Below are positions 5,193-13,798 of a stretch of DNA of 64,000 bases, in pieces. Below the pieces are notes generated by a model, which was not told where the DNA came from, made no database searches, and was given only the letters and a program-made list of their open reading frames with translations. Position numbers and translations under genes: made by a program. The stretch spans positions 672,001-736,000 of the forward strand of contig BK006946.2 in the NCBI GenBank assembly GCA_000146045.2, written 5' to 3'. The DNA is from TPA_inf: Saccharomyces (lineage: Eukaryota). Numbering within the stretch: position 1 is the first letter of the stretch; every line of letters starts with the position of its first letter.

Positions 5193-8100
5193 CTATCTCT
5201 TTCGCTTACTGTCCACCAACCTAGTTAGCTCTTCAAGGACAATGTTTCCCCTTCTGTCTTCAAATTTTTTCTTAAGCTCATCGATCAACAGCGAGATCTC
5301 AAACTCTTCAATGTTCTTGTCAATTTTTTTCGAATTTCTTTCTATGAACTCCACTACTGCTCTGTCATCATTAACATCCAGATCGTTATACCATGACTGA
5401 ACTATTTTCAACAGGTCGTCGTACTTCATTTTCGTTTTGTTATCACATGTTTTTTTTTGCAGTCTTTTGATCACTTGTCCCTCGTTCAACCTCCTTCTCA
5501 GTCTCCAATATAAAAATCTGCGTGACTTTTTCCATTCCAACTCATTTCGGATTACTCCTTTAACTAGCATCCTAGTCGATCTATCATGTAAATCTGCAAA
5601 CTGTATGCTGATTTGATTGTAAATTGGTATCAACTGTCTCTCTCTTATTTTCAATCTCTTCGTAAGATCATTTTGTTTTTCCAAAGATAACTTTTTTTCT
5701 GTCAACGTTCTTCTCAAATGTCCATATGTGGAGTCTAATCGAATCATCGTCTCTATCATTTTCTCCTTACGGTATTTTATGCTAACTACTCCGTCAGGTT
5801 CTAACACACCTCCCCTAGATTCAACATCGGCATACATTTCCATTTGTTCAGGATTAATAGTTGGATCTATAACAACCCATGATCCGCCCCTTAATTCACC
5901 AAAGGGCGGAATGTATATCAGTATGGGTTGTTTGTAGTCAACCAGAGCGTCAACAATAAAAGACCCGTACTTTAGTACTTCATTGTACATATCCCTTTGA
6001 CCGCCAGAAAATCCCCTCCAATTGGCTAAGATAATCAATGGTAATTGCTCACCATAGTTAAAATCATTTATAGTTTGAGCTGTTTTGAACGCGGAATTTG
6101 GATACCACACCTGTCCTGCTTCTTTAACGGAAAACTCTGAAGAATCCAGATTAGCTGGGTCAGCGGGGATTATTTCTTCGATAGTCTTAGTTTCTACCGC
6201 AATAACACCCACGGGAATACCTCCAAGACGTGCTCTTCCAACTATTACACCTTTGGCCCATCCAGATAATGTCTCAAAAAACGAATCCTTATCAAATAGG
6301 CCTGACTGGAAGTTGTTATTTGAGTCCCATTTACCCTCTATCAACCACCTTGCCTCATATGGCACTTGCTTGGCAGGTTTGAAGTCTACATCCCTATCCC
6401 ATCTATCCATAGTTTCAAGAAGTGGAGGACTCATATCTCTTTTCGCCGGGACATATGATAACCATGTCATTATTTTTTCGATGGCTTTCATATCATTACT
6501 GGCTGTTAAATGCGCTATTCCGTTTTTATACATGATTTGGGTTCCGCCAATTTGTAGGTTAGATGTATAGATATCGGTACCCAAAACTTTATTAATCGCC
6601 GATGCACCCGTCAGTATGATAGGCTTATCCTCCACCTGAATAGTACGTTGTCCTAGTCTGACCAGATAGGAACCTATACCAACGGACCGACAAGTAACAG
6701 CAGTAATAGTGAAAATGTCTCTATACGCTTTCGAAGTGGCACCAGCAATTAAACCCGAGCCCTGTAAACATTCAACACCTAAACCCTCTTCGAATCCGAC
6801 TATTGCTTTAATAATATATCTCTCTTCACCGTATACCATCTTGTGTTCAACAACAACCGAATTTCCTTTCCCAGAATCTTTCAGTAGCTGCATGTCTTTT
6901 GGAGCTAAGTATAAGTACTGGAAACCCTTTGTTGGATCAGAGGGGTCATTCCATGCTACACGAAATAGAGGGATCAGCTCTTCGGCTATACCCAATTTAG
7001 CTCCTGAATTCGCCGCCAAGTATATCCTCGGGATCCCTCTCTCTCTTGCATAATTTGTGACCCTATCAAAAAACAAATCTTCTCTCGGTCCAAAAGATCC
7101 AATATTGTAGGTAATATCATTAGAAATCACGATCATGTTACGCCCTTCAGGATATTCAGGTGTCTGAACCATAATCTCAAAAGCAACCATCCCTATATTA
7201 TTAAGGCCTGGCTCCCTGTTTACTTTTATTAAATTACCGTTTTGTTCTATCAATTCAACCCAACTAAAAAAACTGTCATTCAGCTTATGTTTTGGAAAAT
7301 ACCTTTTCCACTGTTGGATTGCAGCTTGATGAAACAGACCTGGGAAATCGTACACATATGTTGTACCCATGAATTGAGCTTTGTACCTTTTAGGTTGTAG
7401 CCAATCCTTGACCGAGTAAGGAAGAGAGAGAGATTTCTGGCTATAATGGCTCTGCTCACTACACGGTTCCAAAATCAGATTCCCATTTTTCCCTATCTTT
7501 TCGTAATATGTCTCAATTTTTACCACATACCCAGATTTATTAGAAATAAGTAATCTAAGCGGGGCTGGCTTCTTTGTTTCTAGGCACTCAACAGAGATGC
7601 AAATTTCTACATCTGTGATTCTTTCTTGAAACAATCTGGTTTCGTGAGTCTTTAGAATTGTACTCACAATTTCCTCGAGACGATGTACTGGTATGTTAAG
7701 AACTGTATTGAAACTTAAAAAAATATGATTCAAGTCTGAATTTGAGATGTCAACTGCTCCTAGATGTTCTAACATATAAACCACTTGAGCATTGATTTCC
7801 GCTTTCAAGTTTTCTTCGGTTGTTTTTTGATCATTATACATGAAGGAATTTATGATTTTCCTGACAAAGAACCTTTTATCTAGCGGCGTAAATTTGCTAA
7901 TACCTTCAAAAATGCGTATACTACTATCGTATGTAGGTAGTGATCTGATTTTATAGTTCGACATTTTTCCTAACTCTAACGGTGCTTCATAGGATGGATC
8001 CATATTTCTTATTTGAGAGATTTCATCGTACGTAGTTCCATCAAAGGAGTAAAATTTAACAGCGGGCGCATTCGCGGCGATAAATGCAAATGTAATACGA

Positions 8101-11100
8101 TTAACCTTGAGCTTGGATAGACCTCTCTCATTTTCATGAAGTTTAATTTTTAAAGTTTTAATTAGATCATTTTCACTTCTGTAACGAATAGGAGATAAAA
8201 TATTAACAATAAGAGAGTTCTCTCCGCTGGAAAGTCTTTCCTCAGGAATATGAATTTGTTCGTATACCTCGTCTAATGTCTTTTCCAGAGATTCAAGCGC
8301 ACGCATGTTGACAAGAAGACCAAAACTATTTGCTGAGCTCTTACCTGATGTTGAGGGAGGTTTAGAAAGTTTTGTAAACTCATCACTCTCACCATCAGAA
8401 TTGACTAAATAATTTCTTAATGAGCTGAATTGCCATGACATTAGTAAATCAGGCGCTCCTTTATGAATCTTAATACTTTTTAATTGATAATTGCCGTAGG
8501 CATACCTTGCATAAATTTCAGATGCTATACTGGAAAGAGCCGTATCTTGATGGCCAAAAAAAAAGAACAAATCCTGAAGTTGTATCAGATTTGAATGTAT
8601 TAAATTACCAAAATCCCTCATACAGGAATATATGTTCCTGCTGTGAATGTTTTCGGCACCAGTATCCTTTATGTGCAATTGCAGGAGAGTTTTAATATGC
8701 TCTTTTCTTTTCTTTATGGGAGGGAAAATCCCTCTGAGTAGCACTGATCTTGCCTTTACAGCAACCTCTTTAGCCCACTTAGATTCCAAACTTGCCAAAT
8801 CATGTATAACAGCCCTGAATTTTAAAGACATCTTAGAGGAATCCTGGCACAATGGCTCGTATTCATGCAATATTGCAGTTACTAACTTGTTCTTTGCGAC
8901 TACGTTAGCATGCGATAAACTTATGCACAAAATTTTTTTCAAGTTTGTAAGGTCTTTCCTCCGCAGATTTAGTAAGTTTCTTTCTTCATGTATATCATGA
9001 TTTTCAAAAATTTTCTCAACAGCATAGTACTTTTTAATCAACTTTAAAAAAATTTCACATTCGTGATTAGCTAAACCTTCGCTATACCTTTCACTAATTT
9101 TAAGAAGTGGCTGTAAGGCAACATAAACTACATGATCATTTGTATTTTCTTCCAAGTAGCGCTTCATTAATTTGTGCAGTTCCTTTGCAGGAAAAGAAAC
9201 AGATTTCTTGACTAGATTTCCCAGCCCCTCATTCAATTGCCTTGGTAGTCTATTGCGTACCGTAGAAATTTGGGAATCCCATTCTGAATAAGGAAGCCTA
9301 CCATCTCTCAATATTTTTATCAACTCTTTTAGAGTAGTTTCTATTCCAGAGTTTTCATGATATCCATTGAGAATATTTTCTAACCTATTTATTAAGACTC
9401 TGAGCTTATGGTTTGGTCGGCTACCCTCTATTAGCGGTGGACCTAAAACAGGTAATTCTCCGCGGTATAAAGACGATTCGTTAGCTTTGGACGGCGAATC
9501 CAAAGTCAATTTTGCGATGACATCACCAGCCTCAATTATGGAACCGGGCTGTCTTAGTAACTCAATTACACCATCACTTTTCGCTACTAGTGGCATCTGC
9601 ATTTTCATTATTTCTATTTCTGCATATTGCTGTCCAGCAAAAACGTGATCACCACTTCGGACCAAATATTTCACCAATTTCCCCGGAGTTGGAGAGATCA
9701 CTTGAGTGGGATTGAGTTCAGCTTCTAAAAATATGGTATTGGAGTCTATCGAAAGTCTTGTACCTCTGATATCGTCCTTCCAATAAACTGTATGGCATTT
9801 ACCGTCAACGGAGATCAACAAGCAGTCACTGGACAATTTTTGAACATTAACTTCACATTGAGACTTATTGATAGAAAGAATAAATTGTTCTTCAGATGAT
9901 TGAGCAACATTGAACAAGTATCTATTATTATCGAAAATGAAGTCAACAGGAAACTTCGTTTTAAGAAAATCTTTAGGTGGAACTTGGCCCCTCCGCAATA
10001 ATTCCAAATACTTATTCCTCACCTTTTCTGTGAAAACGTATGCTTTCATTGCGGCACCACAGATAATAGCGAGCGTTGGATCTAGTTTGCTATCGGAAGA
10101 TAAATTTTTCAAAATCAAATCATCTAACCAACCAGTCGATATGTTATTACTCTCAAAGTCCCGAGTTTCTAATAGCTCTATCAGGTACTCTATGGGGGTT
10201 TTGAATTCTCCTCGGATGGAAAAATCTTTTAGAGCTAAAACCATGTTTTGCTTTGCATCTTGCCTATCGTTTCCTACAGCAAAAATGTGCCCAAATTGGG
10301 AATCTGAAAATGAGTGAATAGCACCATTATTTCCTACTGAGAAGTAACCCCAAACATTGGAAGAAGAACGAAAATTGAGCTCATGTATTTTCCCAGTGGA
10401 GGGCTTGAAACCTTCATTAGGATCTTCTGAAGTGATCCTGCATGAAATACAATGGCCTTTTGGCGAGGGTCTCTTTAAATTTTTAAAATCAATATACGAA
10501 GTTCCCGTTGGATCTAAACCATAAAGTTTTCTGATATCACTTATCATGTGCATAGGAATGCCCATGGCGATTTGCAGTTGAGTGGCAGGAAGGTTTACGC
10601 CAGATATCATTTCTGTCGTTGGATGCTCTACTTGTAGTCTCGGATTCAGTTCTAAAAAGTAAAATTTATCATCTTTTGGTGAATATAAGTATTCGACAGT
10701 GCCCGCAGAAACATAACCTACCAATTCACCTAGACGAATTGCTGCGCGTTCCATCCTTTGAAACGTTTCAGGCTTGGTTATTGTCACTGGTGCCTCTTCT
10801 ATAATCTTTTGGTGCCGCCTTTGTATGGAACAGTCTCTCCCAAACAATGTAATGTTAGTGCCATATTGGTCAGCTAATAACTGTACCTCTAAGTGACGAG
10901 CATCAGTGACAACTTTCATAACAAACATAGGCGACCCAGGTGTCTCATTCACTGCTTGGCGATATAATGCAATAAAATCATCCTCATTATCTACTCGCCT
11001 AATGCCCTTACCTCCACCACCTTCGGATGCCTTAATCATTACAGGAAATCCTATTAATTTAGCCTTTTCTAAAGCATCTTCAGGTGAGGAACAACATCCC

Positions 11101-12014
11101 CTTACATATACATCATCCGGCACAGATACAAAGTTCGTCTTGTTATCGATATGGATAGTGTCTATATGTGAACCAGACCAAGGGATACACGGGATTTTAG
11201 CGCTTTGTGCTACAATAGTGGAAGAAATCTTGTCACCCAATGATCTCATAGCGCGTCCAGGAGGACCAATGAATAGTATTTTCCTTTGTGAACTAGCTAA
11301 CAGCTCAGGAAGACACGGATTTTCAGAAGCATGGCCCCATCCAGCCCAGACCGCATCCACATCCGTTTGCTCTGCCACGTCCAGTATTAAGTCTATGTTG
11401 GCGTAATTGTTGTTGTTGGTACCCCCTGGTACCTGCACATATTGGTCTGCCATTCTAATATACTCCGAATTTGCGTGTAAATCATCAGGTGTCGCCATTA
11501 CCACGAATTGAATGATTTTTTCATCATTGAACGTCTCGTACGCCCATTTTCTTATAGATCTCATTTCTTTCACCGCAGCAATACCATTGTTTGCTATTAA
11601 GATCTTTGAAATAACAGTATGTCCACCACGTAAATCAACAAAATCTCTTAATATTGAAGGTTGGGCACTTTCCACAGTATTTAGCCCTATGAACTGGGGC
11701 GGTAATCGAGTATGTTTATGAATATTGCCTCGATCCACATAATTGGAATACCTTCTTCTAGATGGAAAATTCAAACCTATTCGAGATGAATGCCTATACG
11801 AATGGGCAAAAATGCGTTTTCTGTATTCAGGGCGCTGTCCTTTCAACCGTACTATCTGGCTGCCCGTTATATTATAGAATCGATAAGGATCCAAATATAA
11901 CGCGAGCTTGTACTGTCCTATTCGAATGCAAGTAATTGTGAATATGGTAATGTAAAAGTGAGAATGTATCCGGCGAGCCCCCCAGCTTTGGCCGTGTGTA
12001 ATTGTCTTCCCTTT
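5193..12014 (-). CDS. HFA1: Mitochondrial acetyl-CoA carboxylase. The end coordinate is the maximal stop-to-stop frame. The first in-frame ATG is at 11562-11564. The true non-AUG initiation codon lies somewhere in 11565-12014.
   Basis: The long ORF is a paralog of ACC1. It has a biotin carboxylase ATP-grasp region, a biotinylation motif EIMKMQ (Lys codon AAA at 9603-9605 on the minus strand), and carboxyltransferase domains. The 150 codons upstream of the first AUG are open, contain no ATG, and are Arg/Ser/His-rich like a mitochondrial presequence. Near-cognate candidates are TTG at 11892-11894 (the track's start) and ATT at 11934-11936. Confidence 0.9.
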   Translation of the reverse strand, partial: KGKTITHGQSWGARRIHSHFYITIFTITCIRIGQYKLALYLDPYRFYNITGSQIVRLKGQRPEYRKRIFAHSYRHSSRIGLNFPSRRRYSNYVDRGNIHKHTRLPPQFIGLNTVESAQPSILRDFVDLRGGHTVISKILIANNGIAAVKEMRSIRKWAYETFNDEKIIQFVVMATPDDLHANSEYIRMADQYVQVPGGTNNNNYANIDLILDVAEQTDVDAVWAGWGHASENPCLPELLASSQRKILFIGPPGRAMRSLGDKISSTIVAQSAKIPCIPWSGSHIDTIHIDNKTNFVSVPDDVYVRGCCSSPEDALEKAKLIGFPVMIKASEGGGGKGIRRVDNEDDFIALYRQAVNETPGSPMFVMKVVTDARHLEVQLLADQYGTNITLFGRDCSIQRRHQKIIEEAPVTITKPETFQRMERAAIRLGELVGYVSAGTVEYLYSPKDDKFYFLELNPRLQVEHPTTEMISGVNLPATQLQIAMGIPMHMISDIRKLYGLDPTGTSYIDFKNLKRPSPKGHCISCRITSEDPNEGFKPSTGKIHELNFRSSSNVWGYFSVGNNGAIHSFSDSQFGHIFAVGNDRQDAKQNMVLALKDFSIRGEFKTPIEYLIELLETRDFESNNISTGWLDDLILKNLSSDSKLDPTLAIICGAAMKAYVFTEKVRNKYLELLRRGQVPPKDFLKTKFPVDFIFDNNRYLFNVAQSSEEQFILSINKSQCEVNVQKLSSDCLLISVDGKCHTVYWKDDIRGTRLSIDSNTIFLEAELNPTQVISPTPGKLVKYLVRSGDHVFAGQQYAEIEIMKMQMPLVAKSDGVIELLRQPGSIIEAGDVIAKLTLDSPSKANESSLYRGELPVLGPPLIEGSRPNHKLRVLINRLENILNGYHENSGIETTLKELIKILRDGRLPYSEWDSQISTVRNRLPRQLNEGLGNLVKKSVSFPAKELHKLMKRYLEENTNDHVVYVALQPLLKISERYSEGLANHECEIFLKLIKKYYAVEKIFENHDIHEERNLLNLRRKDLTNLKKILCISLSHANVVAKNKLVTAILHEYEPLCQDSSKMSLKFRAVIHDLASLESKWAKEVAVKARSVLLRGIFPPIKKRKEHIKTLLQLHIKDTGAENIHSRNIYSCMRDFGNLIHSNLIQLQDLFFFFGHQDTALSSIASEIYARYAYGNYQLKSIKIHKGAPDLLMSWQFSSLRNYLVNSDGESDEFTKLSKPPSTSGKSSANSFGLLVNMRALESLEKTLDEVYEQIHIPEERLSSGENSLIVNILSPIRYRSENDLIKTLKIKLHENERGLSKLKVNRITFAFIAANAPAVKFYSFDGTTYDEISQIRNMDPSYEAPLELGKMSNYKIRSLPTYDSSIRIFEGISKFTPLDKRFFVRKIINSFMYNDQKTTEENLKAEINAQVVYMLEHLGAVDISNSDLNHIFLSFNTVLNIPVHRLEEIVSTILKTHETRLFQERITDVEICISVECLETKKPAPLRLLISNKSGYVVKIETYYEKIGKNGNLILEPCSEQSHYSQKSLSLPYSVKDWLQPKRYKAQFMGTTYVYDFPGLFHQAAIQQWKRYFPKHKLNDSFFSWVELIEQNGNLIKVNREPGLNNIGMVAFEIMVQTPEYPEGRNMIVISNDITYNIGSFGPREDLFFDRVTNYARERGIPRIYLAANSGAKLGIAEELIPLFRVAWNDPSDPTKGFQYLYLAPKDMQLLKDSGKGNSVVVEHKMVYGEERYIIKAIVGFEEGLGVECLQGSGLIAGATSKAYRDIFTITAVTCRSVGIGSYLVRLGQRTIQVEDKPIILTGASAINKVLGTDIYTSNLQIGGTQIMYKNGIAHLTASNDMKAIEKIMTWLSYVPAKRDMSPPLLETMDRWDRDVDFKPAKQVPYEARWLIEGKWDSNNNFQSGLFDKDSFFETLSGWAKGVIVGRARLGGIPVGVIAVETKTIEEIIPADPANLDSSEFSVKEAGQVWYPNSAFKTAQTINDFNYGEQLPLIILANWRGFSGGQRDMYNEVLKYGSFIVDALVDYKQPILIYIPPFGELRGGSWVVIDPTINPEQMEMYADVESRGGVLEPDGVVSIKYRKEKMIETMIRLDSTYGHLRRTLTEKKLSLEKQNDLTKRLKIRERQLIPIYNQISIQFADLHDRSTRMLVKGVIRNELEWKKSRRFLYWRLRRRLNEGQVIKRLQKKTCDNKTKMKYDDLLKIVQSWYNDLDVNDDRAVVEFIERNSKKIDKNIEEFEISLLIDELKKKFEDRRGNIVLEELTRLVDSKRKR

Positions 12015-12466
12015 CTACCCAAGATGACTTCTTCTTTATCATTCTTCATTATTCATCTTTTCTTGTCATCTGCCGCCCACCCATTTTAGTTACCCTAACG
12101 GAAACATTGATGAATGATGCTATTATTACTGTCATAAGCAATAAAAAGAGAGGTTCCTACTACTTCTCCCGTGGAAAGCTAGCGATAGCCTTGTACTCTA
12201 TCTCACTTTCAGAATGCGTACACATTTATGTTTAAAGAGGCGTTTTGTGCTAGTTTTGTCTCAACGTGTATTTTATCGGTTGTAATTGTACTGACAATTT
12301 TCGGGCCTCGTTTGGCTGTCGCACTGAAATCTTCGACAGGGTATCGAAGAACGATACAACGATATGCCTATAAAGGTTAGTTAGCCATGATATTACTTCC
12401 TGGTTAGCTGGTGCGCTTCTTAGTCCTAACTTGCAAATTTATATCTACGTATAGAAAACTGTCAAT

Positions 12467-13798
12467 ATGTCATTACCGTTCTTAACTTCTGCACCGGGAA
12501 AGGTTATTATTTTTGGTGAACACTCTGCTGTGTACAACAAGCCTGCCGTCGCTGCTAGTGTGTCTGCGTTGAGAACCTACCTGCTAATAAGCGAGTCATC
12601 TGCACCAGATACTATTGAATTGGACTTCCCGGACATTAGCTTTAATCATAAGTGGTCCATCAATGATTTCAATGCCATCACCGAGGATCAAGTAAACTCC
12701 CAAAAATTGGCCAAGGCTCAACAAGCCACCGATGGCTTGTCTCAGGAACTCGTTAGTCTTTTGGATCCGTTGTTAGCTCAACTATCCGAATCCTTCCACT
12801 ACCATGCAGCGTTTTGTTTCCTGTATATGTTTGTTTGCCTATGCCCCCATGCCAAGAATATTAAGTTTTCTTTAAAGTCTACTTTACCCATCGGTGCTGG
12901 GTTGGGCTCAAGCGCCTCTATTTCTGTATCACTGGCCTTAGCTATGGCCTACTTGGGGGGGTTAATAGGATCTAATGACTTGGAAAAGCTGTCAGAAAAC
13001 GATAAGCATATAGTGAATCAATGGGCCTTCATAGGTGAAAAGTGTATTCACGGTACCCCTTCAGGAATAGATAACGCTGTGGCCACTTATGGTAATGCCC
13101 TGCTATTTGAAAAAGACTCACATAATGGAACAATAAACACAAACAATTTTAAGTTCTTAGATGATTTCCCAGCCATTCCAATGATCCTAACCTATACTAG
13201 AATTCCAAGGTCTACAAAAGATCTTGTTGCTCGCGTTCGTGTGTTGGTCACCGAGAAATTTCCTGAAGTTATGAAGCCAATTCTAGATGCCATGGGTGAA
13301 TGTGCCCTACAAGGCTTAGAGATCATGACTAAGTTAAGTAAATGTAAAGGCACCGATGACGAGGCTGTAGAAACTAATAATGAACTGTATGAACAACTAT
13401 TGGAATTGATAAGAATAAATCATGGACTGCTTGTCTCAATCGGTGTTTCTCATCCTGGATTAGAACTTATTAAAAATCTGAGCGATGATTTGAGAATTGG
13501 CTCCACAAAACTTACCGGTGCTGGTGGCGGCGGTTGCTCTTTGACTTTGTTACGAAGAGACATTACTCAAGAGCAAATTGACAGCTTCAAAAAGAAATTG
13601 CAAGATGATTTTAGTTACGAGACATTTGAAACAGACTTGGGTGGGACTGGCTGCTGTTTGTTAAGCGCAAAAAATTTGAATAAAGATCTTAAAATCAAAT
13701 CCCTAGTATTCCAATTATTTGAAAATAAAACTACCACAAAGCAACAAATTGACGATCTATTATTGCCAGGAAACACGAATTTACCATGGACTTCATAA
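12467..13798 (+). CDS. ERG12: Mevalonate kinase (GHMP kinase family), 443 aa
   Basis: The ORF starts at a true ATG. The N-terminus is MSLPFLTSAPGKVIIFGEHSAV. It carries the GHMP ATP-binding motif PIGAGLGSSAS. Confidence 0.97.
   Translation: MSLPFLTSAPGKVIIFGEHSAVYNKPAVAASVSALRTYLLISESSAPDTIELDFPDISFNHKWSINDFNAITEDQVNSQKLAKAQQATDGLSQELVSLLDPLLAQLSESFHYHAAFCFLYMFVCLCPHAKNIKFSLKSTLPIGAGLGSSASISVSLALAMAYLGGLIGSNDLEKLSENDKHIVNQWAFIGEKCIHGTPSGIDNAVATYGNALLFEKDSHNGTINTNNFKFLDDFPAIPMILTYTRIPRSTKDLVARVRVLVTEKFPEVMKPILDAMGECALQGLEIMTKLSKCKGTDDEAVETNNELYEQLLELIRINHGLLVSIGVSHPGLELIKNLSDDLRIGSTKLTGAGGGGCSLTLLRRDITQEQIDSFKKKLQDDFSYETFETDLGGTGCCLLSAKNLNKDLKIKSLVFQLFENKTTTKQQIDDLLLPGNTNLPWTS

Follow-up and report, generated by a model that had tools for sequence, protein, structure and literature searches.

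The HFA1 locus

The window analysed here is a stretch of 64,000 nucleotides of Saccharomyces cerevisiae S288C (contig BK006946.2, positions 672,001 to 736,000), and this work deals with the 5' end of one of its genes: the locus is that of HFA1 (YMR207C), which encodes the mitochondrial acetyl-CoA carboxylase (ACC). HFA1 lies on the minus strand. In the following, positions with a minus sign are counted upstream from the A of the annotated HFA1 ATG, which is window position 11564. The ATG-initiated open reading frame (ORF) comprises 2123 residues, has the N-terminus MRSIRKW, ends at position 5193 and is identical to NP_013934.1 (acetyl-CoA carboxylase HFA1). Upstream of this ATG, the frame stays open over a leader of 150 codons; the translation of positions 5193-12014, which includes the whole leader, is identical to UniProt P32874.2 with its 2273 residues. 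The features needed at this point are:

5193..11561, minus strand: remainder of the HFA1 ORF with the BC, BT, BCCP, central and carboxyltransferase domains and the stop codon (ORF list, Pfam)
11562..11564, minus strand: annotated ATG, which is the start of RefSeq NP_013934.1 and, according to the cross-species alignment, an internal methionine codon
11565..12014, minus strand: in-frame leader of 150 codons (0 stops, 0 ATG), all of it contained in UniProt P32874.2
12015..12017, minus strand: in-frame TAG closing the HFA1 frame upstream of the leader (translation)

HFA1 has the architecture of a eukaryotic multidomain ACC. The families PF00289, PF02786, PF02785, PF21385, PF00364, PF08326 and PF01039 are all recognised with scores that exceed the respective cut-offs, they follow each other in the canonical order on one polypeptide, and the similarity to the structures of the biotin carboxylase (BC) domain of yeast Acc1 has an E-value of 1e-134.

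An open frame upstream of the annotated ATG

A first-pass annotation of the window had reported 150 sense codons free of stops and ATGs between the TAG at 12015-12017 and the ATG at 11562-11564. Translation of the minus strand confirms this, and the peptide quoted there, RLKGQRPEYRKRIFAHSYRHSSRIGLNFPSRRRYS, is found in the leader translation. The chance of such an open frame was assessed by shuffling the 902-nt intergenic sequence: a run of at least 150 codons occurred in 1e-4 of the trials, and an analytic estimate gave 2.5e-5. With its 150 sense codons in frame ahead of the first AUG, the leader exceeds the length expected by chance (P about 1e-4); the other two frames contain 12 and 6 stops. 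That an in-frame ATG is missing in the leader is, by itself, weakly unusual (P about 0.05). Note that the 299 nt from -475 to -177 are free of ATG in all three frames, against an expected number of 5.6 (P about 0.004).

The 3' third of the leader belongs to the conserved enzyme:

11565..11720, minus strand: Acc1-homologous part of the leader, 52 codons, including the first 16 residues of Biotin_carb_N (…VISKILIANNGIAAVKE) (alignment, Pfam)

Leader residue 99, located 52 codons upstream of the first methionine, is the first one that can be aligned to yeast Acc1 (PDB 1W96, 5CSK), and PF00289 (Biotin_carb_N) extends from residue 135 of the 2273-residue protein, which is 16 residues before this methionine. 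The earlier statement that the ACC1-like core begins only near the first methionine is thus incorrect, and correcting the position of the core strengthens the conclusion that translation has a non-AUG start. As Acc1 homology is found upstream of the ATG, the sequence by itself argues that the annotated ATG cannot be the start.

Conservation of the leader in the genus Saccharomyces

For the comparison across species, seven lineages were used: S. cerevisiae, S. mikatae (L008), S. kudriavzevii, S. eubayanus (L009), S. uvarum (L012), the S. paradoxus-like L007 and the S. uvarum-like L011. The orthologues were obtained by means of a protein search with the full-length sequence; this replaced a search with a 450-residue N-terminal query, which had returned short fragments only and no sensu stricto orthologues. 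HFA1 orthologues, with 76-88% identity, were found only in Saccharomyces; the next matches have 57% identity and are of the Acc1 type. All six non-cerevisiae loci are syntenic. In the window, the neighbours of HFA1 are a GHMP kinase gene of 443 codons (12467-13798, consistent with ERG12), a gene of the carnosine N-methyltransferase family (CARME) and a DUF4667 gene, and the gene order ERG12-like / HFA1 / DUF4667 is common to the six other Saccharomyces loci. A metagenome scan with the leader peptide returned one locus, which is identical to that of S. cerevisiae and adds nothing to the comparison. The post-duplication genera Naumovozyma, Kazachstania, Vanderwaltozyma and Tetrapisispora show only Acc1-type proteins with about 55-57% identity.

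Counted back from the equivalent of the annotated ATG, the leader frame has at least 135 codons without a stop in each of the seven lineages. An in-frame leader stop in another sensu stricto species, which had been named beforehand as evidence against a translated leader, occurs in none of them. Between the ATT codon at -372, which is introduced below as the start codon, and the annotated-ATG codon, there is a single indel, and it has a length of 3 nt. Among the 55 codons compared in the HFA1-specific part of the leader, the first, second and third codon positions are invariant in 31, 28 and 16 cases, respectively, which is the signature of a coding sequence. The ATT itself and the A at its position -3 are invariant in all seven lineages, and the stretch which matches the 5' untranslated region (UTR) of the major S. 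cerevisiae transcript is likewise free of AUG in all of them. The annotated ATG, however, is not conserved: in S. uvarum, S. eubayanus and L011 this codon is ATA (Ile), as in Acc1 (KEIRS), and the first in-frame ATG of these three lineages is located 22 codons deeper, inside the BC domain. Judged from sequence alone, the cross-species analysis independently confirms the genetically mapped AUU.

The database entries of two of these lineages differ in their starts: annotators let the S. uvarum protein begin 22 codons further in (2101 residues) and that of S. eubayanus at a far-upstream ATG (2278 residues). One further S. uvarum-like locus, the Logan contig L005, was rejected as evidence on the frame. 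Its leader contains frameshifts, but these are also present in the invariant BC core and in the CARME gene, and its clean relatives (L011, L009 and L012) keep intact frames.

Start of translation

The ATG-less leader of HFA1 was reportedly described in 2004 by Hoja et al. (J Biol Chem 279:21779). Among yeast proteins, Hfa1 is the textbook example of synthesis from a non-AUG codon alone. The finding as such is already known: it was described by Hoja et al. 2004 and by Suomi et al. 2014 (PLoS One 9:e114738, PMC4263661), and it is included in UniProt P32874. Crediting Hoja et al. 2004, Suomi and coworkers state that the ATG-started protein is not functional, that the ACC1 homology reaches 5' of the ATG, and that the upstream region holds the mitochondrial import sequence (PMC4263661). 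The extended definition of HFA1 has already been applied to an S. uvarum allele (Li et al. 2019, PMC6353624). The features related to the start are:

11934..11936, minus strand: ATT (AUU) at -372, the experimentally mapped start, in the context TTCACA ATT ACT with A at -3 (Suomi 2014, stop-codon scanning)
11892..11894, minus strand: TTG at -330, the rejected second candidate, with T at -3 and located inside the 5' arm of a predicted hairpin (context, stop mutants)
11988..12005, minus strand: major transcription start region, -441 to -424 (Suomi 2014, rapid amplification of cDNA 5' ends, converted coordinates)
11738..11740, minus strand: first AUG on the major mRNA, at -176, out of frame, opening an ORF of 17 codons (MWIEAIFINILDYRPSS) (sequence)
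11585..11587, minus strand: second AUG, at -23, out of frame, opening an ORF of 5 codons and formed by the conserved Asn-Gly codons AAT GG (sequence)

The position of the start was determined by others. Stop codons introduced at -372, -363, -360, -312, -282 and -273 destroy complementation of an hfa1 deletion, whereas stops at -375, -378 and -381 leave it intact; this boundary places the start of translation at the ATT at -372 (Suomi et al. 2014, PMC4263661). We converted the published positions to the window: the ATT corresponds to 11936-11934, the ATA at -381 to 11945-11943 and the CAG at -273 to 11837-11835, and -450 lies directly after the TAG. All of them agree, i.e. the published HFA1 and the locus studied here coincide base for base, including the boundary at -450.

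The first-pass annotation had put forward two near-cognate codons in good context, the ATT at 11934-11936 and the TTG at 11892-11894. Both codons are present at these positions; the first one turned out to be the mapped start, and with A at -3 its context is indeed good. The TTG has a T at -3 (TAT TTG) and hence no good context; since function is lost with stops at -363 and -360, which precede the TTG, it is excluded as a sufficient start. The more general claim of a non-AUG start within the leader is borne out by the homology to Acc1, the frame kept open across species, the ATA at the place of the alleged first ATG, and the published genetics (PMC4263661). The ATT is an invariant near-cognate codon with A at -3 which marks the 5' boundary of conservation.

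Based on these findings we are highly confident that translation of HFA1 starts at the AUU at 11934-11936 and that this start supplies the mitochondrial presequence and a part of the catalytic core. The open frame, the homology, the conservation and the mapping of coordinates were established in this work; the start position (by genetics), the sufficiency of the leader for targeting and the transcription start sites (TSS) were established by others.

In the 5' analysis of cDNA, the major TSS were located between -441 and -424, minor TSS were seen at -587 and -618, and neither editing nor splicing was found (PMC4263661). On the major mRNA, the 5' UTR up to the AUU has a length of about 52-69 nt and contains no AUG. 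The two out-of-frame AUGs follow further downstream: an out-of-frame ATG is present at the equivalent of -176 in six of the seven lineages and at the equivalent of -23 in all seven. Their conservation may just follow that of the encoded Tyr-Val and Asn-Gly residues.

These data suggest the following course of initiation. The 43S complex would scan a short AUG-free leader and initiate at the AUU with its A at -3, presumably with Met-tRNAi. The AUU would be chosen as the first near-cognate codon in good context on this leader, and the constrained element described below might help. From the AUU, 124 codons would be translated until the ATG annotated in databases is reached: the first ~72 residues, which are HFA1-specific, strongly basic and partly amphipathic, would act as matrix-targeting presequence, and the 52 residues behind them would contribute the homologue of the Acc1 N-terminus with the first strand and helix of the biotin carboxylase domain. 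Ribosomes missing the AUU would meet the out-of-frame AUGs at -176 and -23 ahead of the annotated ATG, so that the amount of truncated product should stay low. A protein beginning at the annotated ATG would possess neither a targeting signal nor an intact core, because the presequence and the first part of the biotin carboxylase domain are encoded upstream.

The presequence region

11721..11936, minus strand: HFA1-specific N-terminal region, 72 codons from the AUU, mitochondrial presequence region (composition, published targeting)

The 72 residues of this region comprise 15 Lys and Arg versus 3 Asp and Glu, as well as 8 Ser and Thr. The most amphipathic 18-mer, RIFAHSYRHSSRIGLNFP (residues 41-58), has a hydrophobic moment muH of 0.57, and similar values are reached in most lineages. 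For a presequence, the first 16 residues form an unusually long, hydrophobic and invariant stretch. The Hfa1 extension alone sends a beta-galactosidase fragment into mitochondria, as detected by alpha-complementation (Monteuuis et al. 2019, PMC6582344); that the extension is needed for import was deduced from the stop mutants (PMC4263661). The proposal that the leader carries a mitochondrial presequence is supported by the reported targeting sufficiency, and the basic, partly amphipathic composition is consistent with it. It had been accompanied by the claim that the first ~60 residues contain no acidic ones, which is not correct: Asp is found at leader residue 42, followed by Glu 63 and Asp 94.

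A constrained block at the start codon

11886..11942, minus strand: nucleotide-invariant block from -378 to -322, around and after the AUU (51 of 57 positions invariant in seven lineages)
11859..11907, minus strand: predicted conserved RNA hairpin from -343 to -295 (RNAalifold, hypothesis)

Conservation of nucleotides changes abruptly near the start codon. The fraction of invariant positions is 27% in the stretch from -441 to -382, rises to 89% between -378 and -322, i.e. from 6 nt before the AUU, and is 45% in the remaining HFA1-specific leader. The third codon position shows the same effect: in the AUU-initiated ORF, 16 of the first 17 codons have an invariant third base, compared to 27% of the codons gene-wide (2,234 gap-free codons). 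All windows of 17 codons with at least 12 invariant third positions start in codons 1-12; in the rest of the gene no window exceeds 11, with a mode of 4-5. In order to account for the conservation of the protein, codons with an invariant amino acid were considered separately. In the block, 14 of 14 such codons also keep the third base, compared to 375 of 1,336 (28%) elsewhere (p = 2e-8). Codons 1-16 are invariant except for codon 6 (ATA/TTG) and codon 7 (GGA/GCA). Codons 17-21 vary in the amino acid and mostly keep the third base, codons 22-24 are again invariant, and ordinary wobble sets in at codon 25. The region that begins 6 nt ahead of the AUU and ends with codon 24 (about 11859-11942) is the most synonymously constrained one of HFA1, and this constraint is real. 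The invariant block is unique within the window. An antisense ORF was considered as its cause and rejected, as no such ORF exists.

The predicted hairpin has a stem of 9 bp formed by CGUUAUAUU (11894-11902) and AAUAUAACG (11865-11873), which belong to codons 12-15 and 22-24 and enclose the variable interior. As an isolated 49-mer, the sequence folds alike in every lineage, with free energies between -14.6 and -18.5 kcal/mol and z-scores between -2.5 and -5.6. The inner stem is retained in every lineage, in S. cerevisiae in a shifted register by means of paired changes. Several observations weaken the case for the hairpin. Among the seven lineages, changes on both sides of a pair were found in 0 of 23 consensus pairs and in 0 of 18 hairpin pairs; there is no covariation signal, because the arms of the hairpin are invariant, and the element does not qualify as a structured RNA by covariation. 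In a context of 121 nt the fold has a z-score of -2.0, and the 57-nt block alone reaches -0.4. Moreover, the boundaries of the hairpin were picked after the fold had been seen, and it covers only the 3' half of the constrained region. An assisting role in initiation is further weakened by the distance, as the base of the hairpin is located about 27-29 nt after the AUU.

Apart from a sub-threshold SNORD18 match, an Rfam scan of positions 11400-12500 gave no result, and none in the constrained block. The SNORD18 match (11460-11532, minus strand) lies inside the HFA1 coding sequence, scores 22 bits against a gathering threshold of 41 with an E-value of 0.25, and is consistent with chance.

We tentatively propose that the ~85 nt extending from 6 nt ahead of the AUU through codon 24, which combine 16 invariant codons with the hairpin, are a cis-acting element at the nucleotide level, which may act as RNA or as DNA. 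It might make the weak AUU efficient enough to serve as the sole source of Hfa1, or it might regulate initiation or mRNA localisation; we consider this candidate role to have somewhat less than an even chance. A search of the available literature found no mention of synonymous constraint or of a hairpin at the HFA1 AUU. The sharply bounded synonymous constraint and the predicted hairpin at the AUU start are the one lead worth following, as a candidate function only. If the element does control the usage of AUU, HFA1 would be a tractable natural model of an mRNA that enforces obligatory near-cognate initiation.

Alternative starts

Some observations speak against a start exclusively at the AUU at -372. 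As a start codon, AUU is usually weak in yeast. Its assignment relies on genetic scanning with stop codons rather than on initiating ribosomes or the N-terminus being observed directly, and for Hfa1 a search of the available literature found neither ribosome-profiling data nor N-terminal mass spectrometry. In L007, S. mikatae and S. eubayanus there is an in-frame, open ATG 111 nt (37 codons) before the ATT, from which an AUG-initiated long isoform may be made on minor long transcripts, and L007 has an additional in-frame ATG 27 codons after the ATT. Finally, the presequence region contains three acidic residues, and the MitoProtII score published for the extended protein is a modest 0.73 (Suomi 2014, Table 4, PMC4263661).

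The best surviving alternative is a start at another near-cognate codon, namely the TTG at -330 (11892-11894), the ATT at -363 or the ATA at -357. Such codons do exist in frame and are conserved after the AUU (ATT as codon 4, ATA/TTG as codon 6, TTG as codon 15), and redundant non-AUG starts have been reported for ALA1 and GRS1 (PMC4263661). Yet a stop at -372 itself, which would spare any initiation further downstream, kills function; for the TTG, the effect of the stops at -363 and -360 and the T at -3 add to this. We therefore regard a start at one of these codons as very unlikely.

Still less probable is that the minor long transcripts with TSS at -587 and -618 give rise to Hfa1 from an upstream AUG, which would have to reach the HFA1 frame by frameshifting, splicing or editing, or directly in species or alleles that have it in frame. 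The ATG 111 nt before the ATT would fit the direct route in L007, S. mikatae and S. eubayanus, the automated annotations P0134, P0135 and P0138 build models of this kind, and in the contig L004 (P0124) the ATG at -478 is in frame. In S288C, however, the in-frame ATGs at -543 and -492 each hit a stop after 5 codons, and the ATG at -478 (12040-12042) is out of frame. Moreover, the cDNA is neither edited nor spliced, and complementation tolerates stops at -375 to -381 (PMC4263661). The stretch leading to the ATT is poorly conserved, as seen from its 27% of invariant positions between -441 and -382, and a TAG interrupts it in S. kudriavzevii, L011 and S. uvarum. In addition, the equivalent of the ATG at -478 is preceded by at least three other upstream AUGs and lies in a conserved, ATG-rich block upstream of the major S. 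cerevisiae TSS. The in-frame upstream ATG of L007, S. mikatae and S. eubayanus is treated as incidental, and its usage would depend on the TSS.

Two of the supporting cases were inspected individually. The models P0134, P0135 and P0138, which stem from S. cerevisiae strains and S. pastorianus (QID81719.1), employ an intron which joins the ATG at 12047-12049 (MKNDKEEVILG) to different points of the leader. These spliced models are rejected as annotation artefacts, as the sequencing of cDNA shows no splicing (PMC4263661). In L004 (Logan SRR28820056), the shortening of a run of six G to five at 11978-11983 puts the ATG at -478 in frame, and we do not accept P0124 as a true allele. The HFA1 core of L004 is disrupted by two frameshifting deletions, and in sister Logan contigs 1-2 nt are missing from the essential ERG12; L006, a clean assembly of the L001 haplotype, has no such deletions. 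As the same contig is frameshifted in the HFA1 core and L006 is clean, the variant with five G is most likely a homopolymer sequencing error.

That the leader is an ordinary 5' UTR, open by chance, and that functional Hfa1 begins at the annotated ATG at 11562-11564, which is the first in-frame ATG and the start given by RefSeq NP_013934.1 and most strain annotations, is least probable of all and can practically be dismissed, given the chance of about 1e-4 for the open frame, the extension of Acc1 homology and of the BC N-domain upstream of it, the ATA in S. uvarum, S. eubayanus and L011, the two out-of-frame AUGs that come first on the mRNA, and the reports that stops in the leader abolish function and that the ATG-started protein is non-functional (PMC4263661).

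With the start at the AUU at -372, several entries should be used with caution. RefSeq starts Hfa1 at an internal methionine, the UniProt sequence begins 26 residues before the mapped start, and several automated strain annotations invent introns in order to reach an upstream ATG.

The divergent upstream region

12030..12089, minus strand: conserved upstream block from -525 to -466 with ATGs at -520, -505, -492, -485 and -478 (alignment)

The block at 12030-12089 may represent core-promoter sequence, which is probable because it is located upstream of the major TSS. A second block, like the first one strongly conserved, is found in the divergent intergenic region between ERG12 and HFA1 at about 12269-12354 (-790 to -705). 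It contains two perfect inverted repeats of 6 bp (GTATCG..CGATAC and CTGTCG..CGACAG) as well as TCGT-containing motifs, and may be a sterol-response element or another promoter element.

Comparison with known systems

In the accessible papers on HFA1 we did not find three of the observations made here: the genus-wide conservation of the leader, the loss of the alleged first ATG in the S. uvarum clade, and the synonymous constraint together with the predicted hairpin.

For the latter, a related effect is known. According to Kozak's work of 1990, a downstream hairpin reportedly enhances weak or non-AUG starts, with an optimum spacing of ~14 nt. HFA1 resembles this situation in that its weak start codon is followed at a short distance by a hairpin predicted to be stable, and that both elements are conserved. 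In contrast, the base of the HFA1 hairpin, about 27-29 nt after the AUU, is beyond the ~14 nt; because of this longer spacing, the same mechanism is not established.

With respect to the extension, HFA1 can be compared with the single-gene ACCs of other yeasts. Those of K. lactis, K. waltii and A. gossypii similarly carry an in-frame basic extension upstream of the conserved ACC N-terminus, and many budding-yeast ACC matches show upstream peptides rich in Arg, Ser and Leu. The K. lactis ACC requires its own upstream region in order to rescue an hfa1 deletion (PMC4263661). Unlike HFA1, the single-gene fungal ACCs keep a canonical AUG for the cytosolic enzyme. Among the budding-yeast ACC matches, none other than Saccharomyces HFA1 showed the start motif ITCIRIGQYKLALYLD.

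With respect to the start, the closest counterparts are ALA1 (ACG), GRS1 (UUG) and HYR1/GPX3, which share with HFA1 an upstream in-frame near-cognate codon, an A at -3 and an extension for mitochondrial targeting (PMC6582344, PMC4263661). In ALA1, GRS1 and HYR1, a downstream AUG gives rise to the major cytosolic isoform, which results in dual localisation. In HFA1, by contrast, no product except that of the non-AUG start is functional, and the first AUG is located within the sequence for the catalytic domain.

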